A stretch of DNA of 64,000 bases, from the NCBI RefSeq assembly GCF_963678635.1, contig NC_087064.1:45921437-45985436 (forward strand). The letters are read 5' to 3'. Under the pieces are notes generated by a model, which saw nothing but the letters and a program-made list of their open reading frames with translations, ran no database searches and was not told the origin of the DNA. A program made the position numbers and the translations under genes. The DNA comes from Symsagittifera roscoffensis (Eukaryota). This document shows positions 13,560 through 62,755 of this stretch, piece after piece (within the stretch, counting starts at the first letter, position 1; each line of letters starts with the position of its first letter).

Positions 13560-13918
13560 CGCACACTTCTTACAAGAACTGATGTATGGCGACCTCTGTT
13601 AAAATATTTGAATTACTTCAAAAAAAGGTAAGAATGGCATTTGTCGAGCTTTTTTTTATTGATAAATGCTTGAATAATGATATAATTCCCCATTTTCTTG
13701 AGTTCCGTGTTCCCAAAACTGATTTTTTCTCTGAGCAAGCCGTTCTAAATTTTAAGAAAAGACTACTGAGAGATGAGATGAGAAAGTCGAAAGCTAATTT
13801 GGTTCAGCTACTGTAAAAGTTGTTGATGAAAGTAGTATCGTTTTATCCAAAAAAGTGATAAAAAGTGGCTGCCATCGGTAGTTTTCAATTTACGTCAAAA
13901 TGTCAGCACAATCATTGT
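13560..13918 (+). pseudogene. PLE-1 N-terminal-domain fragment, cut by the tandem-duplication junction. The intact continuation is at 21,570 onwards.
   Basis: ORF 13586-13816: MATSVKIFELLQKKVRMAFVELFFIDKCLNNDIIPHFLEFRVPKTDFFSEQAVLNFKKRLLRDE. This motif block is shared with the PLE-2 N-terminus. Confidence 0.55.
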
Positions 13919-32058: not shown

Positions 32059-32517
32059 TCATAATATCTTTAATGTAACGGAGAAAAAGTTAGCCTGCTG
32101 CACTGATTTATTTTTCTCCCTTATCGCGGTGCATTTTCTGCAGTACCAGTCGGTTTCACTTATATTTCGATGCTCATCAAATGATATATCACCGCATTTT
32201 ACGTAATACGAGTTCAAAAAGCATGGGCATCCCACACCTTTTGACTTGTACGTGACCTTCTTATTGCACTCGAGACATATTCCATTAAGTTCTTTTTCGG
32301 GCAAAAACCTTTCACGAACATCCCCCCGAAAGTTCAGTTTCGTACTGCTTCAGCCAAAGGTTTGCTATAAAACGACAATAGTTGCCCTTTTTGCCGAACC
32401 ATTTTTTCTGAACATACTATGTTTCACTGCACTTGAAATGGACTTGACTAACTACCATATTAGTTTTTTTTTCATGGTTCTCTGTAACTGCTGTTGTTGT
32501 TGTTATTGTTGTTGACG

Positions 32518-32603
<86 letters not shown>

Positions 32604-32614
32604 ATTGTTGTTGC

Positions 32615-32657
<43 letters not shown>

Positions 32658-32659
32658 GC

Positions 32660-32705
<46 letters not shown>

Positions 32706-33131
32706 GCTTTTGTTGTTGTTGTTGGTGTTGTTGTTGTTTTCTGTCCCCTGAGACTTGGGTATTTTATTGCCGAAGGCCAAAACTTCTCATCTACACCCCT
32801 CTGTACTGCGCCTTTCGCCTTTTCCAGTTTTCCCTTGAAGTTTTTCTCATCTGTCCTTGCCTTGGTTAATCTCCGTTCCTAAAATTCTTGTCTGAAAATT
32901 ATGTACCGCTTGGTCCGAAAACATCCCATTTTGCGGTACCCTCAACCTCAAAAAATTATGTATATTGTCGTTTTCGAGACATCCTCTTGGAAATTTACCA
33001 CGCTGGTGGCAGTTGATAAATATAAAATATATGGATGCATAATCACAGACTAATTTCCAAGTGCGTGTCTTTTTAAGGTCCAAATCAAGTTTGGAGGTTC
33101 GAGGCCTCGAGGAATAAACCTCATGTGACAC
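32059..33131 (-). mobile_element. PLE-2 copy in P-unit B. It has the N-terminal domain, the (AAC)n tract and the C4HC3 finger. It lacks the 860-bp 5'-RT segment that is present at 3,940-4,800.
   Basis: Minus ORFs 32,847-33,131 and 32,059-32,304 are paralogues of 5,207-5,491 and 3,539-3,784. The sequence at 32,440-32,490 joins directly to the microsatellite. Confidence 0.6.
32491..32737. repeat. (GTT)n microsatellite, the paralogue of 4,856-5,097 with different length and variants
   Basis: Direct reading. Confidence 0.95.
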
Positions 33132-33554
33132 AATTCAACCCAAATAACACAAGTTTAACTCACCTGCTCCGTTGAAGTCTCCTCGTCAGTTCGTCCAACA
33201 ATTTCACCTCCTCTGTCCACTGTCTTTTTTTCTCCACCCTCCTTCTCGTTTGCTAGTTCTTTTTCTTGTATGAACGAAGCTTCGACGAATCAGCTGGTAG
33301 GTTGTCTCTGTGTTCGATCACAATCCGCAAAGATTTTTTTAGCTCCAGCTGGATGTCCTGGTGTAGTCCCTGATATTCGTTCACCAGCTCCGTTCTTCTC
33401 ATCCCTTTGAAATCAGACACCTCGTAATAGAAATGACAAGAATACCCGAGCTGATGAGCTGGTTCCTGATATCTGGTGTACCGTTTCTCTGACAGTATAC
33501 ATTTGCGCTGATATTTGTCATTGTCTTCAAGATTTATGTCAATTCCTCTGGAGT

Positions 33555-36500
33555 GCAAGCTCTGTAAGTGTTTGTGCGATGGCTGTTGATAGAATTACTA
33601 ATAATGTCGTGTGACACCACCTTTTGACGTTTTTCTACTATAGATGCCCTGCAGAGTAGGTTTGAGAGGTTTTCTGCGAGTTCGTGGTATTCGAGTTTAA
33701 GGAAAGTCCCGGATTAGCCAATTTTTTGGGAAGAAATTGTTCGTTTTTAGGGTTGCTAAGTTGCTCCAGGCGCTACAATGTACACCATTTCAATTCTAAC
33801 AGGCTATTCTAACAAATCACAATTCTAACCAGGGCTCCAAACAAGAATAGAGGGATCAAAAAATCTTACAGTTCACACAGAATTTTTTGAAACGTGGACA
33901 ACAGCGCGGCAACAACGTGGACGGCTTTATCCTAGCTCCACATTCAAGAAAAAATAGAAAACGAAGTACGGTCTCTGATTGACCAGGGACACATGATTCG
34001 CTGAAAAAATGAAGTGACCAGCAGTTTCTTAGTCTCATTGTAATAACTGTGAAAAAAGATCAAACCTTGAAATTGGCAATGAATTCAAAACAAGTAAGCA
34101 AATCGTTCTATGAAAACAAGCATCGAATGCCTAACATTGACGTTTTGCTTGATAAAATTGAACACTTGCCCAAGAAGTTTGAAACAAACCAAATACAACA
34201 TACTTTTTCAACAGTAGACGTATGCTACGAATATAGACAACCGACAATAGACAATGACAGCCGGCTGCCATCAGACAAAAAAACACATACACATTGTAAT
34301 TTTAGTTTTATCAGTGGTAGAGCTACAAAAAACTCTCAGTTCCAAACGGGACCCTGCGGGCTTACAGATATGTGCGCATAATTGTGAAAAACGAATACGA
34401 CACAATCCCTATGCAAAAGAAAACATATTAAAATTACAAAACCCTACAACCTTCAAATGGCCCAAAAGCTTCATTGGCTCCATTCATCGTTTAAATAATT
34501 CCTACCAAACTTAGCCCAATAGTGTAGGGCCATTTTTACCTACAACAAATTAATTCCACTGTGCATGAAACGCTGATCGCACAAAAGCATTTAAAAAAAC
34601 ATTACCTACAGTACAAAATATCACCGAAAACAGAATTTTCGTAAGCGATAGGGAAACGCGTATTGTATGCGACGCAAGTCGAGAAGAAAGAGAGGCGGCT
34701 CTCGAACAAATTACACCGCACGGCTGGGCAACAATTGCATATGCGTCGCGTTTACTAAACTCTTATGAACACAAACATTCAATCAATGAAGTGGAACTCT
34801 TGGCAGCAGTCTGGCAGATGTTTCACACTAAATACAGACCACTAAGCAATAGTAAATGCTTTACAAAGTAACGGGGGAAATAAAACCTATCAAAACCGTT
34901 GAATCAGGTTGACCGACAGACGTTTTTTGTTCAACTTTGATATAAAAACAGCTAGGAGGCAGTAAAATGGGTAGCTTTCACGACACACGTGAGGAAAACT
35001 TCTCCCCAGCATACTGGGAAGAACATTTTGTCATTACATTAATCGACGACTTTGTCAATTGCATAAAGTTTGAAAATAGCAGTGCTGCAAATATATTATT
35101 GAACAATTCTCCAACCGGATATTTTGGCACGAAGAACTCAACCCGAACGAAATATTTAAATCTTCACATTCGATTTAAATGCAAACAGCATTCACCGTTA
35201 AAATTCAATCTTTACACACTAGACGTTCAATAGACTTGCAACATTCCGTTCCAAGTTCAATTGAAATTCTAAAAAAGCGATAAAATGGACAGACCTTTTA
35301 TACAATGATTGCCATTAACACCGTTCAAAAGAGTCACATTAAAATGCCACAAAGGCAGTCAAGCACAATTATCCTTCGCACAAACCAATTACGCCTCTTT
35401 ATTGAGTCTCTTGTCAAATCACCTCCCCCCGAAATAACAATCAGCGAGGTCAAACACCAAGCGATCACATCGGTCGGAACCTTCACCTTCCGAAGAGTCC
35501 AGAATGAGAAAGCGGACGCGATTTGCCAAAGATTAGAGGAGGGGAGCGCTTTAAGGAAGAAGGCATTCCACTCTTCCGGAAAACATGTGAAGAGTAATAG
35601 ACATAGACTTAATTACAGCGGCCACAAAAAAGCTCGAGTTTTTTCTCCAATCGTCAACATGGTCAAGCAGCAGAAATGGGACAACCAAAGCTTGTTATAG
35701 AACCTACTTTTACAACGTGCGGCACCGCCTGTCGTTTAGGGACAACATCTTACTTAACGACTATAGGGTCGTGATACCGAGGGCTACACTAGTGGATGCA
35801 ATGCATTCAACCCACCTGGGAAAAAATTGCATGTTAGAGGCAGCCAAACACGTGTGGTAGCCATTCTTACACCGCGACCTAGTCTCCACCGCACAAAACT
35901 GTAAAAAATATCGAGACAAGGGTAAGGACTTTGAAGTGATATCAGACAAGCAACACTATACCACGCTTGATATGTTGGTAGAACCTAACAAAGAATACCA
36001 ATTGGATTTCGCGGGACCACTATCCGAAACAAGGAAAAGGATTTATAGTGGTTGTAGAATAATTCTCCTGTTTCCATTCGGTCAAGGTGCTTAAAAATAA
36101 TAAAGCGGATACAAGCATCTGATTTATGCAAAATCACCTTATCAATCATCGTGTGAACAGGCACAAAACGTACGGTGCGACCAAGCACAAAACTATAGGG
36201 CCAACAAATGTGTATTTCGCTGTAAAATTAACAATAACAAAACTAATATATATACCAGTAGATAACCACAAGTCCATGGGTTTGGTGGAAGGGCTTATTA
36301 GAACTCTGAAACCAAGATTATAGGTAATAAGAATCGACAAAACAAACAGGTCGTATAAACTTGCGTCGGAAGTGGCCGAGCGGATTTAAACACTTCAAAT
36401 TACGCGACCACTAAGATTACGCCATTTGAAGCCCAAAATGTCATAAAACACACCACTGAGTAACATCAGCGCATCACCAAAACTTTCAAACATTTCATGC

Positions 36501-37594
36501 GAAAACAAGAAACTTTCATAATTACATTCAAAAATAACTAATAAAGCCGGCATTACCAGCGGAGGGCAGGCGGGACCGAGAGAAAAACAGCGAGGACGAG
36601 CTAAACTTGATGTACAGAGATACATACGCGCCAGAACCCAGAGAGCGTACATACCTACCAGAGCCAACATATAACCCACCCAATGACAAAACTGCCACAA
36701 CTACTATGGAGGACACAGTTGAAAACAGTCACAAAACAAATGCGACAACGAAACCTGGGAAAAAAGAAGGCAAAGGACCTATCAAAACGTGAATGCGCAC
36801 CTCAAAAAATTTCCGGTGGGTGCGCAGCTTCCATTTTCTAACCAGCCCTAAGACCTGAAAAATTTTAAGCACGCCTTCTCAAGTGAAAATATAATACACG
36901 ACAAATGACCTAGAAAAGCCAAAAGGGCGCAAACCAATAAAACACTCACAGAACAAGAAAAGCAAAACCTCGAAAGAGCACCACTAGTTTTCCTACAGGA
37001 CCGCTTCAAAGGTCCAGCACACACTATTGACCCAAAAACGGGACATTGAATAGCCCGGAAAACGAGACCAGTTCCACGAAAAACGAAAAATCAAGGCAAA
37101 TTTGGGGCTCAAATTAAAATTATCCAAACGGGTCAAAATTAACTACTCAACACACCGCGTGGATCAGGGCAGACGGCAACCAACCGCGAGTAATTAGACA
37201 CGATGGTCTTGCATTCATACGAGACCCAAGCGTCTACGGAAAGTGAAGACCTGCGACGCTGAAGGATTTTGTAGTTTATAAACATCAACCAAGAGCCAAA
37301 CCTCATGTCTTAGGAGAGCGCAAACTTGCTGACAGGTGACCCTCCAAACAGACCGCCACAACCACCAGTCCTGTGCGACCACCCCCAAAATCTATCTGAG
37401 AAGTCATTCAGCAATCGATTAACCGCAGGGCATTGGATCCACAAAAGTTGTTCGAATCTTTTGTATCGAAGACAAAACGGGCCCAAAAAAACCCAAGAAC
37501 AACGAGTGACAAAGAAAACACCAACAAACCATACTACCAGGAAAAATGAGCCCCAAGAAGTAATCCAGAGTACTCTTCAGTCAAATTGAGTTCC
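33555..37594 (+). repeat. X' segment. It is a ~95% copy of 5,908-9,935 and includes the gypsy-like pol remnant at 34,049-36,330.
   Basis: ORFs 34,049, 34,254, 35,305 and 36,126 are paralogous to 6,421, 6,608, ~7,660 and 8,469. Confidence 0.8.
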
Positions 37595-40500
37595 TTATCT
37601 TCAGATTCTGAAAAGAACAGAAAAACGCCATCTCCACAGAAACCGGCCGCAAAGCGATTAGACATAAAACACCCCAGAACAAAACTCACCAGAATCTAGA
37701 CGTTCTCCTAGGTCTAGAAAAAGCGCACTCACCATAAAACTAGAAAATCTCATTCCGATTAGCCAAATGTCGGAATTGAAAATGTCCGCAATAGTTGTAT
37801 GCAGCATCGAGGAAACCGACAAGCACAACAACATGCCCAACAAGACCAGCAAAAACCAAGACACCCAAACAACTGATACGAAGAAGAACACAAAGCGACA
37901 AATTCTTTCGGATGGAATCACGTGTACGAAAATACAAGTGGATACTTCCAAGTCAGAAAATACAAGATCCAAAGAACCAAATACGCAGCAAACCATACAC
38001 ACTCTCTCACCATAAAGACCAACAAATTCTTTTTACATTCTCGACAGACCGAAAACGACAGAAAATCCAATTAGCAAAAATTTCGAAACAACAATGAATA
38101 TTCTGCAATCTATCTCCCCGGTCCGGGGTAACTCGATGACGTTCCAGAGAGAACGTGAAACTCATGCAGGGCAACAACGTATTCAGAAAGAGAACCACAT
38201 CAAACAAAAAACATCAATAGAGCCCCAGTTAACGAGGACAAAAAGTCAGACGCTAAAACATATAACGACACGACGAAGAAAAGAGAGCAAAATTGATAGA
38301 CTCAATTGTTCAAAAAGAGGGAAATCTTGTTCATCCCGATTTTACAGAAATACAACTAATGATTATGAACCATACTAAAACAACCAATTGGCAACTCATA
38401 CTTTATTTATAGGTTTTTGTGATTAGCGTATAGAAGTATGATGATTAAATAAGTATAGACAAATGTACTAGTTCTTGTAAGAGACTGTCTCTCAAATGAG
38501 TCGATGTCAGTGTCACCCAGACTTAAGCAGAGAAGTGAGTTTAAATTGCTATTTAACCTGTTTCATTCAATCAACGTTAGATGTTGCCAACGTAACTGTG
38601 GCTTACCCTCACCTAACTGATGAGAGTATAACATGGCGCAGCCAGCAGTTTCGAAAAACACTCTCGAAATTACTCCATTGCGGCAAAAAGCCTCGGTAGA
38701 ACCATTAACCGTGGGGGATATTTGCAATCAGCTGTTATTTCTGGTAATCATAGCCAAAGATGGTAGTAATCCGCAGAACTTTCTTGGACCAGCAATACCA
38801 ACACAAAAACCTCAGCAACCAGGTAACAAACTACCAGTCAACGGAGAACCAAAACCCAAGTTAGAGATTGAGACCTGAGAAATTAGGAAAAAAGAATACA
38901 AGGGGAGAATCAATGTCAACTTCTGGACAATCTAGCACCAACTGTAGACAATTTACCGGGGGAACAAGCGGACATGAAAAATCGCAGCTATTTTTATTTG
39001 TGTCTAGGGACAGATGCCAAAGGCGGCTAAGCAAACCTGACTCGAACCTGAAGATACAAAACCTAACAACTAGATATCTATGAACAGACTAGAAACAATG
39101 TCTTTAAAAAACCAAGAAATGTATAATTTGACAGGTATGAAGCGTTCACGCGCAAGCAGGGAAAAACGGAAACATTGGAGCAGATCCCCAGTGGCTTAAC
39201 AGAACTCGTAGTAATAGGAAACTTCAAATGCACAACTTGTAGCAACGGAGAACGTGAGGCAGAAATTGACAGAGACTTTATCTTCAGATTCTGAAAAGAA
39301 CAGAAAAACGCAATCTCCACAGAAACCGGCCGCAAAGAGATTAGGCATAAAGCACCCCAGAACAAAAGTCATCAGAATCTAGACGTTCTCCTAGGACTAG
39401 AAAAAGCGCACTCACCATAAAACTAGAAAATCTCCTTCCGATTAGCCAAATGTCGGAATCGAAAATGTCCGCAATAATTGTATGCAGCATCGAGGAAACC
39501 GACACGCATAACAACATGCCCAACGAGACCAACAAAAACCAAGACACCCAAACAACTGATACGAAGAAGAACACAAAGCGACAAATCCTTTCGGATGGAA
39601 CCACGTGTACGAAAATACAAGTGGATACTTCCAAGTCAGAAAAAACAAGATCCAAAGAACCAAATACGCAGCAAACCATAGTCACTCTCTCACCACAAAG
39701 ACCAACAAATTCTTTTTACATTCTCGACAGACCGAAAGCGACAGAAAATCCAATTAGCAAAAATTTCGAAACAGCAATGAATATTCTGCAATTTATCTCC
39801 CCGGTCCGGGGTAACTCGATGACGTTCCAAAGAGAACGTGAAACTCATGCAGGACAACAATGTATCCAGAAAGAGAACAACATCGAACAAAAAACATCAA
39901 TAGAGCCCCAATTAACGAGGCAAAAAAGTCAGACGCTAAAACATATAACGACACAACGAAGAAAAGAGAGCAAAATTGATAGACTCAATTGTTCAAAAAG
40001 AGGGAAATCTTGTTCATCCCGATTTTACAGAAATACAACTAATGATTATTAACCATACTAAAACAACCAATTGGTAACCCATACTTTATTTATAGGTTTT
40101 ATTGATTAGCGTATAGAAGTATGATGAATAAAGAAGTATAGACAAATGTACTAGTTCTTGTAAGAGACTGTCTCTCAAATGAGTCGAGGTCAGTGTCACC
40201 CAGACTTAAGCAGAGAAGTGAGTTTAAATTGCTATTTAACCTGTTTCATTCAATCAACGTTAGATGTTGCCAACGTAACTGTGGCTTACCCTCACCTAAC
40301 TGATGAGAGTATAACATGGCGCAGCCAGCAGTTTCGAAAAACACTCTCGAAATTACTCCATTTCGGCAAAAAGCCTCGGTAGAACCATTAACCGTGGGGG
40401 ATATTTGCAATCAGCTGTTATCTCTGGTAATCATAGCCAAAGATGGTAGTAATCTGCAGAACCTTCTTGGACCAGCAACACCAACACAAAAACCTCAGCA

Positions 40501-43993: not shown

Positions 43994-44012
43994 CCCCCCC
44001 CCCCCCCCCCCC
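43994..44012. repeat. Poly-C tract (C19). It reads as a G19 run on the minus strand.
   Basis: Direct reading. Confidence 0.95.
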
Positions 44013-44275
44013 AGAAAATAAATCGAGTCTTTTCTTAACTGAGTCAGCGGCGGATTTAGATCGATAGTTAAATATATAATTGTTGGCTCGCACTCCAGGA
44101 AGAAAAGGCACGCATGTGAATCAGTTTCTCCAGATAAATTTGAAATTTATGAAATTGAAAACAAACTGATGTCCTTGAAACTCTTAGAATTTCTAACTTA
44201 TGATTGACACTTTTTGATAAATATAACCCGGTTTAAGAAAACTATCAATCGGCAAACTTTTCATTCTGCTGGCGA

Positions 44276-44420
44276 ATCTGAAAACGAAAATCCAACGTCG
44301 GAACTAAAAGTTGATCACATTTATCTTGACCTTTATACTTTTGCTGTTCGATAGTGGAGTTAGCGTTGATTTAACAAGGGAACTTTAAAATGAACAATTT
44401 AAGTTCAGAAATCAATTCAG
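44276..44420 (+). mobile_element. SINE-like short interspersed element, copy A (head region)
   Basis: It shares the core gaatctgaa...gatcac...ttttgctgttcgata(g/c)tggagtt.g...ttttaacaa(a/g)gaa...gaactgaa with 49,800-50,075, 55,495-55,640 and 61,845-62,115. Confidence 0.55.
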
Positions 44421-45432
44421 TTTTCCTGAAAAAAAAAAAGAAACATCATGACCTTAATAATAGTCAGAACTATCTCAATCGAAGTAAGTTTTAGTCGCCT
44501 ATTCGCACTTTTGACGGATTTCATGTGTTTTTTGCCCTTCTTTTTAAATTGATCAGAAATTCAACAAGATGAGCTTACCTTGCAGCTCAAATCAAGTATG
44601 AGAAGGCTTCAATATGACAAATCAATGAACTCTATCTGAAGTTTATTTGTGGCTTCTGGAGTTGAGTTGAGAATACATGCGAGAACTCAACAATATGCGT
44701 AAGCGTAACCCAACAATATGCGAGAATACAATATACGTAACCCAACAATTCTTGAACCAACTTGAAACTAAATGAAGCAAAAATTTTGATGTCACTTACA
44801 CTTTGCAGAAAAAAAATTATGGGGGAGGAAAATTTTCTGATTAAAGCGACCGTGAAAACTCAAGCCAATAACCTAAAAAAGTAAGTGCGAAAAATTATTA
44901 CCTAAATAAGTGTCCCTCATCACTCAGATATGCATATTTGAGTCCAAGGTTAGAAAAAAAATGGTGCAGTAAATTTTTATTAATTATTTATTAATCTTTC
45001 ATCAATTAAAGGTATGCCTAATTTACCATGCATTAATCTTTGAATTTCAAATTAACATTTCTATAGCAGTTAATGTCCAGTTAATGAATAGATAAAGAAT
45101 GTTTTATAGATAAATCTTGAGGGAGTATACATTTCCCAGTTTATCTGCAGCAGATATGTTCGACAGTTTCACACGCGTGTCTTCGTTTCTTGAAACTGTT
45201 AGGCAGGAGACAGGTCCACTACATGAAAATTGGCCAACCTGAAAAACAACGTAAATAAAGACAAGTTAGAACAACAGCCTTAAATAACCATCTTACATAC
45301 TGTTAGATTTAACACTTGTTTTAAAAAAATCAATTTTTTAAATCGGAAATAAAAGTTTGCAAGTTTTGTTTCAAGAAGTTAAATCTAAAAGCAACTGAAA
45401 TCTTTCGTAAGCTGAATTTTAATTCATTCTTA

Positions 45433-45615
45433 CTAACTTCTCCATTTTTTTACATGCACGAAATGTATTAAGGAGCTTGCCTGTATCAGACGTCTTTCTT
45501 TTGTACCATCTTTGTCAACTTCTTCTTTTCTCCACACTCTGATCTCGCAGTCGTCCCCAGCAGTTACTAGCAGGGCATGCGCCAATGAAATACACCTAAC
45601 TGCTCCCTCGTGTGC
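45433..45615 (-). CDS. WD40-repeat protein gene, terminal coding exon (E10). The stop codon is at 45,433-45,435.
   Basis: Acceptor aattgttgcag|GCACACGAG in phase 0. The translation is AHEGAVRCISLAHALLVTAGDDCEIRVWRKEEVDKDGTKERRLIQASSLIHFVHVKKWRS*, a WD blade with the ...AGDDCEIRVW motif. Confidence 0.55.
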   Translation of the reverse strand, partial: AHEGAVRCISLAHALLVTAGDDCEIRVWRKEEVDKDGTKERRLIQASSLIHFVHVKKWRS

Positions 45616-45766
45616 CTGCAACAATTATTATCTCAAATCCGCACGTTCGAACAACCGTTAAGTTCAAAAAAACTTACACGCAAATTAGAGCACACTACAA
45701 ATACAATGACCAGAAATAGTAAACGTGACTATGAGACAATGAACAAAGATTACTCGTGACAGGTAC

Positions 45767-45910
45767 CTTGGTAGCCATTGTTTGTTCAACTTTCCACACC
45801 GAACTATTTCTCTTTTCGTACTCCTTCGGGCAGATCATGTGGACGAATCCATTCGCATCTCCAATGTAGAACAAGCCCTGTTCTCGTGCATCCACTTCAA
45901 AACAAGTCCA
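45767..45910 (-). CDS. WD40-repeat protein gene, exon E9. The donor is firm. The acceptor is ambiguous, with alternatives up to ~45,945.
   Basis: Donor ACCAAG|GTACCT in phase 0 joins in frame to E10. The translation includes DAREQGLFYIGDANGFVHMICPKEYEKRNSSVWKVEQTMATK. Confidence 0.45.
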
Positions 45911-46273
45911 CTGAGAAGAAGAGAATTCGTGACAAGTTTCTATTCTGTAACCTAGAAGAAAAATAAATATTTCAACACTGGGGCCAAATAAGATGACAGA
46001 GCGTTAAAAAACAGATTTAAGCCGGTTACACTCAAAACAATTCATTAATTTTAAAATTTTAACTTATCTGACAAAAAAAAGAACAGCCAATCGAGGATTG
46101 CAAAAGACTAATGAACGCAATTAAACATAAAAAAACACTGTTGAAAAAATCTCAACTTTTGAATTTCAAAGTAAAAAATAGATGCCCTTTAAGCTCTTTG
46201 AATTTCTAGAACAATTTATGATTGCCGCTTTTTTGATAACATTAACCCAAATTGAGAAAACTGGATCAACAGG

Positions 46274-46634
46274 CAGGGGCGGATTTAGGGGGGCGGACGC
46301 CCCCCCCCCTCAGGGATTCGACCCCCTGCCGACCCAAAGGGTCCCCCCTTTGATACTTTTTCAGAAATCCATTTTTGGCCGACCGACCGTAAAATTTTTT
46401 TAAAGGCTCTTTCGGCGCCAATATATATTAACTTTGAGGGGGAGCGCGCGCCAAAAAAACGCGATTTTTTTGTGAAAGTTTTTCCAAAAAGTGCCCAAAA
46501 TAGGGGCAAAACAGTGCTTTGGGAGAGCTCGAAAAATCAATTTGATCGACCTAAAAAAAAGGTCGTCAAAATTTTGGAAAATTTTTTGAAAATCCGCCCC
46601 CCCTCCCCTCGAGAAAATCCTAGATCCGCCCCTG
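46274..46634. mobile_element. hAT-like MITE of 361 bp with 16-bp imperfect TIRs (CAGGGGCGGATTTAGG / CCTAGATCCGCCCCTG). It is flanked by an 8-bp target-site duplication TCAACAGG at 46,266-46,273 and 46,635-46,642.
   Basis: Direct reading. The TIR begins CAGGG, matching the hAT YARNG rule. An 8-bp TSD is the hAT hallmark. The element is a GC-rich island in an AT-rich intron. Confidence 0.65.
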
Positions 46635-46899
46635 TCAACAGGTAAAGTTTTTTTCCGCTGGGAAATCTTTAGAAACAAATTCTACTTTCGAAACTAGAAA
46701 ACGCTCACGAATTTTTGCGCCAACTGCACGTTCGTTTTTGGAGAGTGCTATTTACGTCACTTTCAGCAGATGAATTTCAATTGATCTCAAAAAATGCATT
46801 ATACCTAAGTGCATCAATATTTTAAGATTTACCTGAAAAAAAATCAGTAGGACCTATATGATAGTCTTCACTACGTTCATTACTCTTAATCATTTAAAT

Positions 46900-47250
46900 T
46901 TGATCAGATTGATTGAACTATCATTGCTTTGCACAGTCGTCAACCATAGTTTACCGGCTCTTCGGTCCGGAGTCTGGAACAAAGCGTTCGATGAGCTAAC
47001 AAAACAATCGCGTTCATCCATACTACAGTGCAGGTTCCAGAAAGTCTTATTTGGCCCCTTCACTACCAGCCAATCAGTACGCCAGGGCTCATCTTTCAAA
47101 GATGGAGAGGCTGTGCTCCACAGATTCATTACGTTCTCTGGTCTGGAGACGCTTCGAGCTAATGCAGTCAATGAACCGTCCCAGCAACAGAACAATATTG
47201 GGTTCTTTTTGTCAATAAGGGACGACACTTTGCGTATATTGGCCACTGGA
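46900..47250 (-). CDS. Candidate additional exon (E8) of the WD40 gene. Boundaries are unresolved.
   Basis: Minus ORF 46,890-47,297 (135 aa, no stops) contains ...PILFCCWDGSLTALARSV...NLWSTASPSLKDEPWRTDWLVVKG. The overlapping plus-strand ORF 46,858-47,307 is probably the mirror artefact. The 3' end overlaps SINE-like tail sequence. Confidence 0.25.
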
Positions 47251-47601
47251 GATCCTAGATCAGTTGTCGACAACAAACTAGAACGCAACATTATCAAGTT
47301 TTCGTAAAAATTTCAGACACTTACTCAGCTTCATTAAAATAAAAATATTAAATTAGGCAACTTTTAAGGCTGAATTCATGATGCTTAATATGGAGTTGAT
47401 CTATAATTCTCTCAATCTCCCCCTAATTCCACCCCGAGTAGAAAGAATAAAAGAATTTTTGTAAAAAAAGAAACACTTTCGAAGAAAGAACGACACACTC
47501 AATTCGCAGGTTGATCGCTTATAGTTTAAGTATACTTCCAGTCAGTCTCATTTTATTGCTCACAAAACCTCTCGAACATTTCTTCAACATTCCAGACTCA
47601 C

Positions 47602-47940
47602 AGTAGAAATGAGAACAAACCTCAGTGATGCAATGGACCCGTAGGCCCCATTGTTTGCTTCCGTTATCTCCCAATTGTGCACTTTGCCATCACGTCCCGC
47701 ACTCATCACGAACACTCTCTTTGCGTGCACAGCCACATTCACCCCACTCACAAACCCCTTGTGGTGCTTCGGGTGGACCGAATGGTTCATTGTGAGCCGT
47801 CTCCCCGAGGAGTGTTCGACTACTTGTAATTCACCAGCCACGTCTCCCACAACTACACGTGCAAGTGAGCTGACGACGTAGAAGTCAATAGCGGAGATCG
47901 TGACGTCACAGCATTTATTCACGCTTTTAGCACTGTCACT
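47602..47940 (-). CDS. WD40-repeat protein gene, exon E7
   Basis: Acceptor tttcgtatag|AGTGAC in phase 0, continuing from E6. Donor TCTACT|GTGAGT. An alternative donor at CTGAG|GTTTGT lies ~24 nt upstream. The translation includes VFVMSAGRDGKVHNWEI (a WD motif). Confidence 0.55.
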
Positions 47941-48217
47941 CTATACGAAATTTTTTTCAACCTTAATTGGAATTTTTTAATATTCTTTTTTTAATCTTTG
48001 TTTTCAATTTAAAAGATAATCAGCATCAAATTAGAATTTGAACTTCATTTTCTGATTCCACAACACTCTTTCTGCTTTGAAGACATTTGAAAACAGATTT
48101 TCGTAATAATCATATTGAATCCAACTAAATGAATGGCAGTGAACGTTGTTCAGTCTGAAGTGCTCATAAAACCTTGTTCAGTCTTATCATTCGTTGTTAT
48201 TATTTAATGATATATAC

Positions 48218-48501
48218 CTGAACTTTCAGGTCCCATTTGATCACGTTCGAATCACTCGCGCCTGAAAACACGCTCGAATCCTTGCTCTGTTCACATACAC
48301 AATTGACCACTTCTGAGTGACCGACAAGAGACGAGGTCTGATCCCCGACCATGGGGTCAACGACAGTCGTGTGTCCATCTTCGTGTCCAATCACCAAATG
48401 CACTTCTTTTTTCGACTCTTCTTTCTTAGTCGGGATTTCTCTCTTGCTCTGAGCAGAAATTTCTTCATCCTTTTCTACTTCAGCAGCCCAATCTGCAATC
48501 T
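48218..48501 (-). CDS. WD40-repeat protein gene, exon E6
   Basis: Acceptor tttgtctgttcag|AGATTGCAG. Donor GTTCAG|GTATAT. 1 nt from E5 plus AG forms GAG, so the frame is kept. The translation includes LVGHSEVVNCV...SGASDSNVIKWDL (a WD blade). Confidence 0.65.
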
Positions 48502-48826
48502 CTGAACAGACAAACATGTTTCGGACTTCGATAACAGTGTTTTTGTTCCGATTAACCAAAAGCAGTTTTAAATTTTTAGTAACTTCAAGGGCAGTCAAGT
48601 TTAGCCGATAGGCGTGCTACTCTGGAGTGGATTAATTTTTGAATTTGTTTATGGATTTAACTAAACATGTCTCAGCTTTTCGAAATAATAACTCGAGCGG
48701 ACTTCGAGTTAGGGAAACTTCGCTTGATGTTGTTTTTGTTGGAAAATATGGCATTTATAAGATATTCTTGAAACATTTTTGGAGCTTTCTGAAAACTTTC
48801 AATAATTAAGTCTTATTTGAACTCAC

Positions 48827-49010
48827 CCAGATTCATAACAGGTGAGTCCTCATCTGCCTCAGCTTTTATTCTGGCCTCACATACAAGCGTAGATATGCTT
48901 GCACTTGCCGGCGAAGTGAATTGATTGGACGCCAATATGGACCCTGTGGAGTATCTCCAGCACTTCACAACGCCTTCGCTGTCACTCGATACAATCAAAT
49001 CAGCATCGTT
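48827..49010 (-). CDS. WD40-repeat protein gene, exon E5
   Basis: Acceptor ttttttag|AACGATGCT. Donor AATCTGG|GTGAGT. The translation is NDADLIVSSDSEGVVKCWRYSTGSILASNQF... Confidence 0.65.
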
Positions 49011-52145: not shown

Positions 52146-54038
52146 GTTTCTGCGATTCGCAGAGGCTCTATGATAGGCTTTGCAGCCTGTGTAAGCGTAG
52201 TCCGTTTCTCTTATTTCCTCACATTCCAGACTGAGTTATTTCGTTGAGCGGAGTCCTTTTTTTTGCGATTGTGGATTATGGGTCAATTTTTGCGTCTAGA
52301 ATTTACATGTGGTAGCACTATTACAGCCGGAATTGGTCAAGCTGTGGTAGACCTGCAGCTAGAGGTCAAGTGAGAGCTCGTCCTCTTCATCTATCATTGC
52401 CATGGCAGTGAATCAATTACACGAATTGAACGCCTAGCCACTATACTAAGTCGAACTGGTAAGGCGTTCAATTTGCATAGGAATGAAAACCTGATTGTTC
52501 GAACTGATCTTTAGCGTCGATGAAAAAGTTTTTCTTAGAAAAAACTGTGGGAAACATGAAAAAATTTCAAAATGTTTGTTTTTTCAGTACCATCTCTTAA
52601 TTTATCCTTCTACACGCTATGTTAAGTACAGAGTGATACAAGTTGGTATGGTAATTGATTAATAAAAGCAATTTAGTGATTTCAATCCAACTTGAAATGA
52701 TTTGATTTGCTGGTGACACATTGGAAAGGGCAAAATATATTGCGCGTTTATTATCTCACGTTGACATATTATGATCAAAGTAGCCCCAAATTCAATCCCC
52801 AATAACCTTAGAACCAAAATTTGCTAGAAAAATTTAACACAAATCGAAACAGATCAGCTAAAAAACCTGGAATTAAAATTTGTCTGGAGAACAAAAAATC
52901 CCGAGCACAAATATTCTGTCACTTTGTTGAAAAATCGGAACGAATAGCTTGCGTCAAGACATTTCACAATAATTTCTGCGCCATATTTAATAGCCGGTTT
53001 ACGTGTGAACACGACGAAGTGCAGCGCGTGTTTATGGTCCCAAATATGCAAATCAGCATTAAATTTTTAAAACAAAAATTTCTGAAATATAAATTTTTGA
53101 AAAACACCCTTCACATTCTATAAAAAGTACAAAAGTACAAAGTGATATATTTCGCATATAGCAAAGTACTAAATAGACTAAATAGAAAGCTTCAACTCAA
53201 TTTCGAACGATTTCTAAGACGGATTAAATCTCCGCTTTATTAGCAAGAAATAGATCGCACGTTAAATGTCTCAAATGGTCAAACTTTGAACCCCCATAAC
53301 TTTGCAAAAAATGATCAGAAGTCAAATATCTTTTTCAATTTCTCAAGACAACAATACATGTTGAATGATTTTTAAAGATTCCGTAAAAAAATTGCTGGAG
53401 AAAAAACCACCCTGAGCTCAAATATTCCGTCTCTTTCTTAAGTCAGAACAATTAGGATCAATCAAGATAAAAACGTCGTAGTCAAGTTCATTAATGACGT
53501 TTAAATCTTCATATACCAGTAAAATTCACGATTCAAGGAAACAAATTTTCAGAGCGTAAAGAAGTGATATGAACTTTCAACAAACAGAATTTTTTCGATA
53601 GAAATTTGATAGGCTAATTAATCGACCACGAAGTGGTAAGGAACTATGTGCTTTGTATGTTTTCTTCTCAATTCTGACGGCTAAAAAAAGTTTGAAGGGA
53701 GTCCAGGGTTGCATCATATTCAATCCCTATAATCGTAATTCGGATACCAAAAAACGAGAGATTGAACTAGACAATTTTATAAGTCTGCAATTTTTTCATT
53801 AATCTAGTAATTATTACCTCTCATTTGGCAGCGTTTTACGTAACTCAATCGCATTTAGGTAAAAAATAAACGACAAATATTTCAGCAAAAGAAAAACAAT
53901 GTTCTGTATCTTATTTGCTTTACTCCAATGGCTGAGGTCCGCATATTCTGTACTATTTCTACAATATTAGTCAGATCAAACACTTCAACATTTAAAATAA
54001 AAATTCAACAAAACTAGTTGGGTAAGATTTGGACTAAC

Positions 54039-54320
54039 AAAATACTTGACGTATTGTATAGCCGAGTTGTGGCCTGTCAATGTGTATGCAGCACAATTAG
54101 CATCAATCACTGCTCTTTCTTCTTTCCCTTTCTTGTCGCCCTCTTTCATCACCAGGTGGTTTATCCTCTTCCAAACTCTGATTGAGTTGTCTGCCGAGCC
54201 AGTGACGACTACTTCTTCACTGGCATCCAGACACGTGACCCAGTCTTCATGAGCATTTTGGATCACTTGCACTGGTCCTTTGCCGTTTTTGATTTTCTTC
54301 ATGTCCCAAAGAGCCACTTT
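54039..54320 (-). CDS. WD40-repeat protein gene, exon E4
   Basis: Acceptor aaatgattgcag|AAAGTGGCT in phase 0. Donor TATTTT|GTTAGT. The translation is KVALWDMKK...VVVTGSADNSIRVWK...LTGHNSAIQYVKYF (WD GH and WD-type motifs). Confidence 0.6.
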
Positions 54321-55494
54321 CTGCAATCATTTAGCACATTTATTATTAAGTCAGTTAAGGTATAAAGGATATCCAAGCATTAAGGTACTTTATTAACCTA
54401 AATTGCAAAAGTATATCGAAATTTAGATGCCCGGCAGCTGATATCAAACTCAATGCCGACATACGTCTTTGCGGTTAATGAAACGTTTTTATTACGGTTT
54501 TTTTTTCATAAAAATTTAGGTGATAAAAATAGGTGATCATTTCTTAATCACTGATTTGAAAATCGATGGGTCTTTTATGCTTATTCGATGTTTGACGCAG
54601 AGGCGAGACAGCTTCGCAACACTTGCGATACAAGGCAAGTTGTCGACAGAAAATGAATGAACACAGAGGCGAAGCTGCGCTTCGCAAACACTTGCGACAA
54701 CACGACCAAAAAGCAGCTCTATCTATAAAAAGTAGAAATAAGCGTCGAATTACCAAAAACTCGGATACGTGTCGGATTCAAATCTGCGATCTACTGCAAT
54801 CAAATGATTTTGAGTCTCACGCACTATCCACTCAGCTACGCAAGCTTAACAACCAAGAAACAGTAGTCACGAATAAAGCCGCTACATATGCTAATAAATT
54901 GCCAATGCCATTTAGCAAAAATGGCACCAAATACAAATAGACACAATGCTGCAAATAATAATTTGGAATATAAAAAACTGAAGGCAACCACACTAAATTT
55001 GCATCACAACAATCACGACCACAACAAATCGCAAAGCACAAAGCCACATTATGTATAAATTACGCATTTCAAAAAATTGCTTGATACATTAAGTTAGAAA
55101 AATTCTGAAATCGAGTTTTCATTATTGTTATGTTGTTTGAAACAAATCACCTTTACGGTTCATTTGATGAATTAAAAATGCATCAACTGTGTTAACTTAT
55201 CATCATTCGAATGTCAAAGCAGATGCTATGAAAAAGCTGTCAAGGCGTCACCAAAAGTGGCACCAATATTTCTGACTTAGGCTGGAAAAAAAAAGAAAGT
55301 TCGCACTAATACACATGGGTTCGCAAGTTTAAAAAACGTTCAAAACAGCAACATAGCCAACAGACAGTCGGAAAAAAAGCCAATAACGCAAAAAAGAGAA
55401 AACAATTTTCGAACTTCCAGGAAAACAGATTGATTAAATTAACACAATGAGAAAACAGGATCAATAGCTAAAATTTTTAATTCGCTTGGAAACC

Positions 55495-55640
55495 TGAAAA
55501 TTAAATTCCATTTTCGAAAATTCTGCTGTTCGATAAAGTACTGCTGTTGGATAAACGACACTTTTGCTGTTCGATAACGGAGTTGGTCTTCCTTTTAACA
55601 AAGGAAATGAGCTGAATTAAAAAAAAATCAAAAGCCAAAC
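55495..55640 (+). mobile_element. SINE-like short interspersed element, copy C (head region), within a WD-gene intron
   Basis: See copy A. Confidence 0.5.
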
Positions 55641-55858: not shown

Positions 55859-57105
55859 AAAATGTAAAAAAGCTTTGAACGGGAAAATCAAAGTGAAATA
55901 AGACAGATTCAAAATACACCTTGAAAAAAAATTGTTGAGAGTAGAAGTTTTATTTTCTCACATCTGCTCTACGACCGTTTGTTATTTTTCTAACATTAGC
56001 AACTAATAAAGCAGCTACAGTTTTTATCAAATGCAAATTGCCAATGTTATGCAGCAAAAATTCGACCAAAAAAATACTTAAATGTTCTGGATTTGAATAT
56101 CAGACCTGTTGATTAGGAGTCTCACGTCCTCGCATCTGCCCTACGGTCGCTCGGAAGTAAACTAGTGGCCAAACTAATTTTGGATCTACCAGCTCTAATA
56201 ATTCAATCACATATTTTACGGACACGGAAATGCATAATTTTCAAAATAAGGGACTTTATGTTAACCCTAGAGTTTCTCTGCTTATCTATGGGATGAAAGG
56301 CAAATTTAAAAGAAAAAAATACTATTCGCTTTTCCAATTGAAGTCTATCTCAGGTTAAGCTGGGTAGTTTTTGAAAAAGTGAAAAAGGTTCCATAAATCG
56401 ATCGAAAATTCAAAAATCGAACTTTTCCTAAATCCAAAAAAAAATCGCTAAATAAGCATGGAACTAGCTTCTGATTTCTACACCCGGGTTTTCAGATAGA
56501 AGATTTCGACACCCTGATTTTTTAGATGGAACCCTTAATATCAGATTTAGCTAGAAGTTTTCGATAATAGTGACAAATTTTCTAAAAGGGTAAAAACTTA
56601 AAAACGAATTTTTCCGAAGTCCATATCAGCTTTTCTACAGAAGAGTAACAGGGTAAAACAGATAACGCAGGGAAAGTCTAAGCACCATGTCAGTTTTATT
56701 GATCTATTAACATCAGAATCAGCAAATTCGTTTTTCGAAAAAAGAAAAGCTTTCCAAAAAACGGGCATACTGTTTTTCAAAATGCAGGGCATAGCCGTTT
56801 GCACAGATAAGATCGGATTAACTGATTTTTTTTGGTTAAACACAAACACTCAAAAAAGTTTCAAAAATAAACCAATATGTCAAAAATGGGCTTGTTTGAG
56901 GCATGCCGAATTTAGGGATTAGCCTCTTGAGAGATCCCTCTATATTGTTCTTTTGATTGACACCTACATCTCAAGTTTGTGCGTTCAATATTTGCGTTCA
57001 AAAATGAAAAGAAAAAAATCAAAAAATAGGCCAAAATCTCCCTATTGAAACTTTCGAAGGCTGCAGTGAGTAAGGTAACATAAAAGAAGACTAGCGAAAT
57101 ATACA
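55859..57105 (+). repeat. 1.2-kb dispersed repeat, copy 1, in the E3-E4 intron. Copy 2 is at 62,756-64,000.
   Basis: Near-identical sequence over >1.2 kb from ...tgtaaaaaagctttgaacgggaaaatcaaag to ...ctgcagtgagtaaggtaacataaaagaagactagcgaaatat. Confidence 0.85.
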
Positions 57106-58714: not shown

Positions 58715-58950
58715 CTAAAAACACAAATGTAAGTTTAAGTCAAGTATTTTGGATGTCAACCGTAAGTCTAGTCAACTATGCAACCTTTATTATAGTTAAA
58801 CCTTTTACAGGCTATTTATGAAATTGCGAAGCGTTTAATTTATAACAGCTGATTGCAAAATCCTGTTTGCTGAGACTTAAAAAATGTCAGATCAAAACAC
58901 AGAAAATGAACATTTGAAAAGCAGGGAAAATTTCTCTTGCAAAGTTTGTA

Positions 58951-59201
58951 CCATGCAACTGAAATGTTCCCGTCAGCTAGAAGCACAGCAAATAGCGTCT
59001 GGTTTTTACAAAATGCAACACTCTTCACGGAGACATCCTGAGTGTCCTCTCGTCTACTACTCTTCGAAACAATCGCATTAGACGGATTGTCTTCAGTCAG
59101 AGTTTGTTGTCTCACGTCTAGAGCTGTGATCTCTTTGCCCAGGTCACTTCTCCATACCCTTAATTGACCGTCACTGCCAGTTCCCACCAACATTTGGCCG
59201 C
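58951..59201 (-). CDS. WD40-repeat protein gene, exon E1, the most 5' exon I could find. It starts with an acceptor, so at least one further upstream exon exists.
   Basis: Acceptor ctatttcag|GCGGCCAA. Candidate donor GCATG|GTACAA, weak but phase-compatible with E2. The translation is GGQMLVGTGSDGQLRVWRSDLGKEITALDV... (a WD motif). Confidence 0.4.
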
Positions 59202-61844
59202 CTGAAATAGATTAAAAAATTAACAATCTGGGCAAAAACTACGAGGCAACAAATTGTAGAAAAATCATGAATTTAACTATGCATCGTGATGATAAAACAA
59301 AAATTCAGCAGCGGCACCAGGCTTGACATAAATATGCGGCGCATAACCCCGCATAATTAGCCTTCAATTCGAAATCGAAGAATACCGCAGAAATTTTGCA
59401 TAATTGAAGGATTTCGAGCAAACTTTTCGAATTTTTCCGAAAATTTTATAGAGATGGCATTGAATTTTTTGACGCTTCAAAAATTCGACGCTTAAAAAGC
59501 TCAAGTACCCAAAAAAAATCAAAATTAAATTAAAGGAAAATTTTTGGGTTTAATTCTGTTGGGAGGGTGGTCAAAATACTTATTTGGCAAAAATCTGAAT
59601 TTTTTGGCTAAAATTTTCATACTTTTTTCCCGTGGAATTTTATATTTGTAGAAATGCCCACATAATTAATAAAAACTACCCGCAGTCCGAACTGCATAAT
59701 TTAACTACTTATGCCCGCTGATTTTTGCCAAGCCTGTTGGCAGCATTATTCTTGATTGTTTACTTCATATCGCGTGTTTTTCAGCCGTATGGATAACGGA
59801 GCTGTAATTGTTTCGAATTCTTGTAATGATACAATAATATGGGCAGTATCTTATAAATACCAGTTTCTTTTGAATAAGCAGAGGATCAAATTTCTATCAT
59901 ATCAACATCTTCCTAGAATTAAATCGAAAATTATGTCTGATCCGAGCATAGAAAAGAATTCAAACTGATTTTGCAAGAATTAATTGGAAAGACTAAGATC
60001 TTGCTCAAAAAGATTATCATGTCCGATTTAAGCAGATCAGGCAAGACAGAGGAATCTGTTCGACTAGATAACATCGATTAAAATCACGCTTAGTCCTGAT
60101 TGACACCTGAATAAAATCTAGATTGCTAAACTTAGCAAATTCGAATTAAGAAATAAGCATCAGATTTTTCCGTTGCATCAGATCCTGCAGCAATTCTTAG
60201 CATTCACTTAATTCAACGCAGATTTTAATTAGTGGGAAGGGATGGAGGAGGATGTTGGACACTCTCAACGCCCACAGGGACTCTTGCAACACTCATTTTG
60301 GCCAAACCCTGTTTTGGCCGAATTTTCAGCAGCGCAGGCAAAATTTTGAAAAACAGGTTTAAAAAAGCCGTTTCACCCCCTAAATTGGCCTCTGCTTTAT
60401 AGAGTGTCCAGAGAGCTCCAAAATTATGTTTAGTCGACTCAAAAAATAGTAGATGAAATAATCAATCTCTGAAATTAAATTTTGATGTAATGGCGAGAAA
60501 AGGTAAGACTTGACGAATCAAGTTTTAATAACAAAACTAACAGAAATTTTCATTGGCAAATTCGGATCTAATTCAAATTCAAAAAAGCAAAAAGAAGCAA
60601 GATCTTTGCAAGAAGCACAGAAAATTCCAAATACAACACAGTAGAAAGTACCTGAGCAGAAACCATTTCAAAAAATACAAAGTTTTGAAGCCCCCTTCTT
60701 GTCAAAACACACGCGCAAACGAACACTTTCTTTGCTGATGAAACGACGCAATATAACACTATTTAGCCGATAAATATAGGCCAAAATCATTTGAGCAGAA
60801 TAAAACATGTGAGCGAAAAAAAAGAATATACGAAGTCAACGTCAGTCAGTAAATTACAAACCGCAGAAAAAATCAAAACACTAAAAGCAAATAAAATAAA
60901 AATAACGTAGAGCAAAACAAATTCTGCGATGTCGCAACTATGCTGACAAAACATAAGCAGACAAATCATAAGCCGCCATTTTTTTTTAAACGAATTAATT
61001 CCAGTTTAAAAAAAAGCAGTCAGGTTCGAACCCAGAGTTTCTGCCGTCGCAGATTATTCCTTGCCTCCAAACCAATTGTGCCGGAGAAGGAAAAAAACTG
61101 AATTCATGAACTGAACATGAAATTACCATTTCCAATTTTTCCCTTTCTGTGAAATAAGTTATTTAGAGGAAAAAAGTCTCGTACCCAGTTGCAGCACACT
61201 TGCAAAAGCAACAACCAAGTAAAACAAAAAAGGCCGTTTTTCTATGAGAATTTTTGCTCAACTTCGAGTCATGATTGAACCTTTTTATGTCGATCCCACC
61301 CAACTTTTAATCTCAAAAATAGTCAACAGACTTTTAAAAAAGTGTCAATGAACGCAAAACGAGAATGAAAAAAGGCCAATGTACTATCAAAAAATAACTC
61401 TAAAAGAGCTTAAAAAACACAAAAATTCGCAATAACAGAAGAGCCATAGATACCGAACAAATGATTGAACTTTTTCCAAATAAGGAATTTCGGAGAAGAT
61501 ATAGTATATTTAATCTCCGAAACTTTTTTCGTCAGAATTTATCAAGAAACATTTACAAAAACTAGGCCAAAAAATAACTTTTTTATTTCGCTGGGAATTA
61601 TTACAAATGGATTTTGTTTTTGAAATTAGGCCAGTCATAATTTTGGCGCGAATTGCACTTTTGCTACTGGAGAGCGTAATTTGTCTTTTTTAACAACTGA
61701 GTTAGAATTGTTTGGACAAAAAATTAAGAAATGTATGGCTTTTAACATTTTTTAATTTTAAGAACTAACTAAGATTGACTCTTTTTTTTGATAAAAAAGT
61801 CATTAAGAACAATGGATCAAAGTAATTTTATTATTCGGCTGAGA

Positions 61845-62115
61845 AATCTGAATACTTCAACCCAATTTCGGAAATAGAATTCGATCACGTTTTTTGCACG
61901 TTCTATTCGATAGTGGAGTTTGTTTTTCTGTTAACAAAGGAAATAAAGTGAGCTGAAAAAGAAATCAAGTCAAACCTTGAAAAATCAAGTTAAGCGTGAG
62001 CACTTTTCAAGAATTTTCCTGAAAAAATCTTCAAGACCTATTTCAGAGTCTTCACTACGTTCATCGACTCTCGAAAAATTTTTATCGAGAACCTGAACGG
62101 AAAAATTCGACTCCG
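61845..62115 (+). mobile_element. SINE-like short interspersed element, copy D (full length)
   Basis: See copies A and B. Confidence 0.55.
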
Positions 62116-62755
62116 ATGACGAGAACACTTTTAACATAAATCCACAAGTTGGATCAATTTAGGATGCAAGACAAAATACAGCCAGAAGAAATTCGGAAAA
62201 TATTCGATGGATGCAAAAGGATAATGAAAAAAAAGAAGATGTACTATCGAAAAAAAAATTAAAACTGGAGCTTTGAAAAGAACACAAAATTGCCACACAC
62301 ATAATAAAACCATAGAAACCGAAAAAAATTGAACATCTCTGAGAATAATTGAGAATAATTTTCCTTTTTTAGCAATTAAAATTTAATTGAACATTAAACA
62401 TAAAAATTAACCTAGAAAAATTGAACTTAACCCTTAACAACTTCTACCATACCAAAAACTCTTTCGTATAAAAAAACATAATCACTTCACTTCGTTCACT
62501 TACACTAGAACAGAAACTTTAACAAGTTTTAGATTAATTCAAAAAAGAAGAGGCGTAATTACGGGCACAATTACTTAAAATATTATATTCATTCACCATG
62601 AGAAACATAGCCAACATACAGCTGAAAAATATTCGATAAAAACAAGCAAACAATTTTTTTTAAATAACTCAACTTTCGAATTTCAAAGTAGAAAAAACAT
62701 GACCTTAAAGCTCTTTAAATTTCAAGAACATTTTATATTTGACACTTTTCTGATA

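Follow-up and report, generated by a model that had tools for sequence, protein, structure and literature searches.

A probable non-autonomous hAT element with Tip100-like ends, inserted into a dispersed repeat and likely located in an intron of a predicted WD40-repeat gene

The window analyzed here is a stretch of 64,000 nucleotides, and the element under study is located on its plus strand at positions 46274-46634. It is 361 bp long, non-coding, and flanked by two exact copies of the octamer TCAACAGG, one at 46266-46273 and the other at 46635-46642. This target site duplication (TSD) is exactly 8 bp long and cannot be extended; the adjoining bases differ at both sides. The left terminal inverted repeat (TIR), CAGGGGCGGATTTAGG (46274-46289, plus strand), is of the kind called the G-type end below and resembles the TIR of Tip100. 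The right TIR, CAGGGGCGGATCTAGG (46619-46634, minus strand), represents the AT-type end and is followed inward by ATTTTCTCGAGGGGAGGGGGGG. Both TIRs comprise 16 nt, start with CAGGG, and are identical to each other at 15 of the 16 positions, and the element as a whole has CAG...CTG termini. Coordinates, size, TSD, and TIRs had all been given correctly in a preceding sequence-only reading of this DNA.

The minus strand on both sides of the element contains segments with Pfam signals for WD40 repeats or beta-propellers, i.e., 49010-48816, 48616-48203, 47940-47587, and 45624-45436, and, farther upstream, 54326-53988 and 59211-58843. The element itself sits between two minus-strand open segments, 47312-46893 and 46003-45698. 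A splice-site scan combined with frame arithmetic predicted an intron, GTAAAC...TTCTAG, at 45952-46954 on the minus strand, which would separate two coding segments near the WD40-repeat exons and has a length of 1,003 nt, or 634 nt without the insertion. The donor GTAAAC at 46954 is frame-compatible with the strong acceptor TTTCTTCTAG at 45952, and the joined exons 47312-46955 and 45951-45767 are translated without a stop. A search of 5.8 billion protein clusters revealed no homologue of the host WD40-repeat protein at E <= 1e-3, which is unusual for a beta-propeller protein (segments 45436-49010 on the minus strand, 53988-54326, and 58843-59211).

Runs of G and C characterize both ends of the element. 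On the left side, G6 (46288-46293) and C10 (46300-46309) form, together with the intervening CGGACG, a palindromic G/C tract (46288-46309, plus strand) that abuts the left TIR, and a second, inward-facing copy of the motif GGGGCGGA is present at 46290-46297. On the right side, a subterminal module (46590-46612, plus strand) consists of an inward-facing second copy of the TIR core, AAATCCGCCCC (46590-46600), and the subsequent run CCCCCCCTCCCCTCG; a C7 run is located at 46597-46603. This module is the counterpart of the G-run in the consensus of AT-type ends, CAGGGGCGGATCCAGGAATTTTGGAAAGGGGGG. The three homopolymers had been noticed before and are indeed present, but their description as an odd internal feature was not upheld, because most of the G/C runs lie in terminal modules common to the whole TIR class described below. 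The GC content of the element is 47.9%, compared with 36.4% for the 64-kb window and 27.5-35% for the 200-bp flanks. The GC-rich island noted before is not unique locally, as exons in the vicinity reach 44-53% GC.

[quoted passage not shown] In addition, it has hairpin potential: the single-strand DNA fold had an energy of -70.7 kcal/mol (z = -4.2), and the ends and the subterminal motifs were paired. The AT-rich interior of MITEs is absent (48% GC versus 36% for the host). A stop-free frame of 118 codons (46289-46642, plus strand) covers nearly the whole element; it had no Pfam match and probably arose by chance, for which our own rough estimate is about 3% over six frames. An Rfam search of the element yielded no family, and a match to mir-3940 was rejected as noise (21 bits versus a gathering score of 84). 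A tRNA scan of the window revealed no tRNA gene.

The whole window was scanned for TIRs with up to two mismatches in 14 nt, and the 361-bp element was the sole pair in which such a TIR was joined to an exact 8-bp direct repeat (null expectation 0.09 per window). At the stringency actually observed, i.e., a TIR of at least 15/16 and an exact 8-bp TSD, none of 400 first-order Markov windows contained a match. Copies of the element had been proposed to be counted genome-wide; the count was made for the 64-kb window, in which the element is present in a single copy.

The element was found to interrupt an older dispersed repeat (46122-46886, plus strand), which is thereby split into 46122-46273 and 46643-46886. 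The empty site was reconstructed by deleting the element together with one of the two octamers, and it was searched against the window. It aligned without interruption over the junction to four paralogues, at 61721-62071 (65% identity, E = 8e-28), 44136-44472 (63%, E = 6e-24), 61558-61724 (67%, E = 4.6e-14), and 55430-55519 (77%, E = 3.4e-13). A multiple alignment revealed that the target is present once in the paralogues. The paralogue at 55430, for example, reads GGATCAATAGCTAAAA, compared with GGATCAACAGG/TAAAG at the MITE locus, and a longer extract reads GAGAAAACAGGATCAATAGCTAAAATTTTT, compared with GAGAAAACTGGATCAACAGG/TAAAGTTTTT. Because the paralogues span the junction and contain the target once, they serve as empty sites and identify the 361-bp element as an insertion. 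A search for empty sites had been suggested for alleles; carried out on paralogues, it gave the anticipated result. The dispersed repeat is unclassified and about 350-500 bp long, occurs also at 62637-62759, and has the same orientation in every copy, with identities of 63-78%.

TIRs of hAT elements start with CAG or TAG (YARNG motif), and the Ac family of this superfamily has the target preference nTnnnnAn. The superfamily is defined by 8-bp TSDs and TIRs of 10-25 bp, and Tip, named after Tip100, is its third major family, with members in plants, Cnidaria, and insects (PMC3942097). Tip100 of Ipomoea purpurea has the 11-bp TIR CAGGGGCGGAG and 8-bp TSDs, also when it is used in medaka (PMC12511174); the original description, cited in both PMC12511174 and PMC3942097, is that of Habu et al. 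1998. For the Buster family the target preference nnnTAnnn has been described (PMC3517528). The element has both a TSD of the hAT length and short TIRs of the hAT type with regard to length and start. Its end CAGGGGCGGAT agrees with the Tip100 TIR at 10 of 11 positions and its first bases agree with the TIR of a further Tip-type element, L098 (see below), at 10 of 12; this likeness supports membership in the Tip family but does not define it, because the ends of BuT2, which belongs to the same family, are unrelated, and the ends are thus not a reliable marker. Membership in the Tip family is decided by transposase phylogeny, in which Tip100, BuT2, and hAT-4_BM group together, while the 361-bp element encodes no protein. 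The octamer TCAACAGG fits neither the Ac nor the Buster preference, which is a statement about one insertion only.

A hAT domain was not detected in the window among the scanned open reading frames (ORFs), which were a subset of those with at least 75 aa, and a six-frame search for the hATC motif, which covered the window as well as the 74 metagenome loci described below, was also negative. As an independent test of the link to Tip100, a protein collection was searched with the ZMYM1/Tip100-type dimerization motif, and every match listed carries PF05699. Twelve sets of contigs encoding Tip-type hATC fragments were retrieved, and two of them contained complete-looking elements, L098 (4327-8454, TIR CAGGGCCGGCTC, perfect TSD TTTATTAG) and L104 (1422-8940, TIR CAGGGCCGGCCTT, perfect TSD CTATAGCT). 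Both have CAGGGCCGGC ends and perfect 8-bp TSDs and enclose ORFs with DUF4371 and hAT dimerization domains; the transposase of L098 is plant-like. In a third element, L095 (2315-5851), the end is CAGGGCCGGCTCCAGG, which agrees with the TIR of the window element at 13 of 16 positions, and its TSD is unclear. Judged from these examples, Tip-type hAT elements typically end with CAGGG(G/C)CGG and generate 8-bp TSDs.

The exact TIR CAGGGGCGGA was not found around a transposase in the twelve contig look-ups, and an animal transposase with exact CAGGGGCGGAT ends was not recovered from the contigs fetched. L098 and L104 have CAGGGCCGGC instead of CAGGGGCGGA. The closest ends located beside transposases were CAGGGCCGGC in L095, L098, and L104, and the CAGTGGCGGATCCAGG ends of MITEs adjoining a transposase remnant in L094 (JGI 3300056599). 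On the latter contig two MITEs end in CAGTGGCGGATCCAGG (7231-7800 and 9331-10130); one of them is nested in a decayed Tip-type transposase gene, and the other is located 1 kb downstream and has the TSD GCTAGGAG/GCTACGAG.

Metagenome contigs were scanned for the pattern CAGGGGCGGAT-N(324-354)-ATCCGCCCCTG, and 74 loci with such ends and a similar size (346-376 bp) were retrieved. At 27 of the 74 loci there was an 8-bp TSD with no more than one mismatch, and these 27 represent about 21 distinct sites according to our own de-duplication; an exact 5-bp TSD was present at ten. The rest had no TSD, including one bacterial locus that had been sampled three times. The 74 elements fall into many families, and their likeness to the window element is limited to about 20-35 terminal nucleotides. 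When the 74 loci were compared by BLAST with the element and with the entire window, no copy of the same family and no shared sequence other than the ends was revealed. As only the ends match, the hosts of these loci are unrelated to the organism from which the window stems. In 596 Gb of prokaryotic genomes the pair CAGGGGCGGAT...ATCCGCCCCTG occurred at nine loci, none of which had a TSD; eight of them were chance-like, without extension of the TIR past the required 11 nt, and the ninth is L084 (see below). In viral contigs there were no matches to the pattern, and three matches to the 16-mer of the TIR, each without a partner TIR, were discarded as chance. Multiple homogeneous copies are the usual criterion for a MITE; as a family, the 361-bp element matched nothing in the window or in the viral, metagenome, and prokaryote collections.

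The ends of the class are asymmetric and conserved. G-type ends have the consensus CAGGGGCGGATCCAGGGGGGGG..ccc, i.e., a G-run followed by a C-run, while AT-type ends have the consensus given above, and the left and right ends of the window element follow these two class-wide patterns. The MITE families with CAGGGGCGGATCCAGG ends (L004-L077) share with the window element the terminal 11-16 nt, the asymmetry, and the size. The inward double motif was rejected as a class-wide rule, because the enrichment of additional inward GGCGGA motifs in the metagenome MITEs was just weak (8 observed versus 3.2 expected). A logo of the TSDs of the metagenome copies with 8-bp duplications, based on our own tally, showed no clear preference for nTnnnnAn or nnnTAnnn. 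The exact 5-bp duplications, which are atypical for hAT elements, were found with the same CAGGGGCGGATCCAGG ends in L018/L033, L026, L040, L049, L051, L053, L056, L073, and L077. Repbase contains 'hAT5' groups with 5-bp TSDs. A MITE of the TIR class is also present in L084 (1042-1404 of CBDBMG010000003.1, a 932-kb contig labeled 'MAG: Nitrosopumilaceae archaeon'), in a stretch that includes a (CA)n microsatellite and has almost no ORFs. This stretch is eukaryote-like DNA in an archaeal MAG, probably due to host contamination or mis-binning.

In the searchable open-access text, no paper outside those on Tip100 mentions the end CAGGGGCGGAT(CC/CT/TT)AGG, and other matches were unrelated, e.g., PCR primers. 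The recurrence of this end together with two subterminal modules in many unrelated small elements, some of them with 5-bp TSDs, is a side result of modest interest. It is conceivable, though rather doubtful, that the window element belongs to a very widely distributed and hitherto undescribed group of MITEs whose ends are of the CAGGGGCGGATCCAGG type. The asymmetric end modules of such a group, about 35 nt long, would be conserved in many host genomes that are not related to each other, the interiors would be entirely different, and sub-lineages would have 5-bp TSDs. If this were true, either a Tip-like transposase lineage would have to be strongly conserved and variable in the stagger of its cuts, or the elements would have to have spread horizontally more than once.

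Tip100 itself differs from the window element in several respects. The CAGGGGCGGA terminus of the latter is identical to the Tip100 TIR over the first 10 of 11 bases, and both have 8-bp TSDs and cut-and-paste movement. In contrast, Tip100 is an autonomous element of 3.8 kb with a transposase of 808 aa, while the window element comprises 361 bp, is non-coding, and has TIRs of 16 nt. The host of Tip100 is a plant, whereas the window looks animal, judged from its fragments of Penelope-like and LTR retroelements. The closest described analogues are the BuT2 MITEs and Mar, both from Drosophila. The BuT2 MITEs resemble the window element in that they are short, have retained only the ends, have 8-bp TSDs, and often lie near or in genes (PMC3942097). 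Their TIR CAGTGCTGCCAA is different, and they are deletion derivatives of 532-927 bp of a known master copy, while the window element is without a known master copy. Mar, a hAT MITE of the Buster family from Drosophila willistoni, is similar in that it is a MITE with 11-bp TIRs of the form CAG(G/A)GG... and 8-bp TSDs (PMC3517528). The Mar TSDs follow nnnTAnnn, in contrast to TCAACAGG, and the TIRs part after CAGGGG. In the way it works, the 361-bp element resembles hAT MITEs with Tip100-like ends, and it very probably is one of them.

Taken together, the 361-bp element is best explained as a non-autonomous MITE of the hAT superfamily with Tip100-type ends, which would have been inserted by a transposase into a pre-existing dispersed repeat, most likely within a minus-strand WD40-repeat gene, in one of its introns. 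The probability of this reading is estimated to be about 0.85. The earlier identification as a hAT-like MITE is supported by the 8-bp TSD, the TIRs, the paralogous empty sites, and the Tip100-like end. Against it stand that no transposase is directly tied to the element, or to its exact TIR in an animal genome, that 5-bp TSDs accompany the same 16-nt TIR in some of the metagenome elements, and that the L098 transposase is plant-like instead of animal. The missing link to a transposase would also be compatible with a MITE of another superfamily with duplications of about 8 bp (P element, Mutator/MULE, Merlin, Zisupton, or Novosib), as would be a TSD of a length that is not unique to hAT and that misfits the Ac and Buster preferences. 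Such an origin is improbable, because the CAGGG... start and the 16-nt TIR fit hAT, the likeness to Tip100 extends over 10 of 11 positions, and in L098 and L104 hATC and DUF4371 occur together with CAGGGCCGGC TIRs and perfect 8-bp TSDs. P elements start with CATGATG, and MULEs usually have longer TIRs and TSDs of 9-10 bp. The idea that an inverted and a direct repeat came together by coincidence in GC-rich low-complexity sequence, and that no mobile element is involved, has hardly any probability left. The ends are G/C-rich and the octamer occurs four times in the window (2.0 expected), but the combined structure was not produced in any simulated window, TSD-flanked elements with these ends are found again among the 74 public-contig loci, and the empty-site alignments effectively refute a coincidence.

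The location of the hAT MITE in an intron of the predicted gene, which the sequence-only reading had also assumed, is likely, as the predicted GT...AG intron keeps the frame open. Alternatively, the element might be intergenic or might lie in a 3' UTR or promoter, the downstream WD exons being part of a second gene. This would agree with the in-frame stop (46892-46890) at which the open segment 47312-46893 ends, with the donor CCG/GTAAAC, which matches the consensus at just 6 of 9 positions, and with the lack of a homologue at E <= 1e-3 that would back the gene model. It is nevertheless the clearly less likely arrangement, because the downstream segment lacks a start codon and opens directly at the strong acceptor TTTCTTCTAG/GT, so that it must be preceded by an intron, and because the 46954/45952 junction leaves the frame open. 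A further explanation differs from the favored one solely in age and activity, and its probability is only slightly below even: the element would be an old, fixed, and immobile relic of a hAT MITE, with a TSD that has stayed perfect by chance and no compatible transposase left. The probability that a TSD pair of 8+8 bp stays perfect is 0.72 at 2% divergence, 0.44 at 5%, and 0.19 at 10%. In addition, the element is present once in 64 kb that are otherwise very repeat-rich, the scanned ORFs of the window contain no transposase, and there are possible degraded relatives at 43998-44060 and 60379-60449. Direct evidence against a relic is lacking; the intact TIRs, subterminal copies, and TSD mildly favor youth. 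The perfect TSD and the near-perfect TIRs had been taken to imply recent mobility, which does not follow given the probability of TSD survival at 5% divergence, and no family copies were found that would allow the dating of the TIR mismatch. Equally, an active autonomous hAT element in this genome is not entailed by one intact MITE, since all that the structure shows is the activity of a compatible transposase at the time of insertion.

The alignment scores of the two possible relatives were barely above those of shuffled sequences, i.e., marginal, and they were not counted as copies. At 43998-44060, 21 consecutive C and the subsequent AGAAAAT are similar to the right subterminal module, and the TIR-like sequence CAGCGGCGGATTTAGA follows 26 nt further on; the site is possibly what is left of a related element. 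At 60379-60449, a TIR-like sequence (reverse complement CAGAGGCCAATTTAGG) lies next to a stretch of 39 nt that is identical to element positions 249-288 at 30 of 39 positions, but the order is not colinear.

For the hAT MITE, the following mechanism of insertion is proposed. The element encodes nothing, is passive, and is not able to move on its own. A Tip-like hAT transposase supplied in trans would bind to the 16-nt inverted ends and the adjoining inward GGGGCGGA copies, as suggested by the TIRs, the subterminal repeats, and the class-wide conservation; the end modules with their G/C runs presumably represent the transposase-binding region. hAT transposases make cuts that are staggered by 8 bp, and the enzyme would have cut the target TCAACAGG in this way. 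Repair of the staggered cut then duplicated the octamer on both sides, as is seen from the sequence and the empty sites. The insertion adds 369 bp to the predicted host intron, including G-rich runs on the sense strand, and an effect on host splicing is a matter of speculation. The locus would represent a routine intronic MITE insertion, which should be masked in repeat annotation and might be used as an insertion-polymorphism marker.

Several other repeats were observed in the window, and nested repeats make up nearly all of its first 43 kb. A unit of 8,012 bp is present twice in head-to-tail orientation (5918-13930 and 13929-21943) with 99.96% identity, and a third copy (32459-39276) has about 94.5% identity. 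The unit contains ORFs for an LTR-retrotransposon RNase H (PF17919) and an integrase-like protein, and the tandem arose either by duplication in the very recent past or as an artefact of assembly. Fragments that resemble Penelope-like retroelements were found at 210-764 and 1245-1592 on the plus strand, at 3542-3829 on the minus strand, and in repeats at about 22.4-25 kb and 28.5-31 kb. They include a reverse transcriptase-like ORF, PHD-finger ORFs, and a GIY-YIG-like ORF with a sub-threshold match to PF01541 (E = 0.006, 17.3 bits versus a cut-off of 22.6). In the region of the WD-repeat gene, a segment of 1.25 kb is doubled (55859-57102 and 62755-64000), and the two copies are 98.9% identical.
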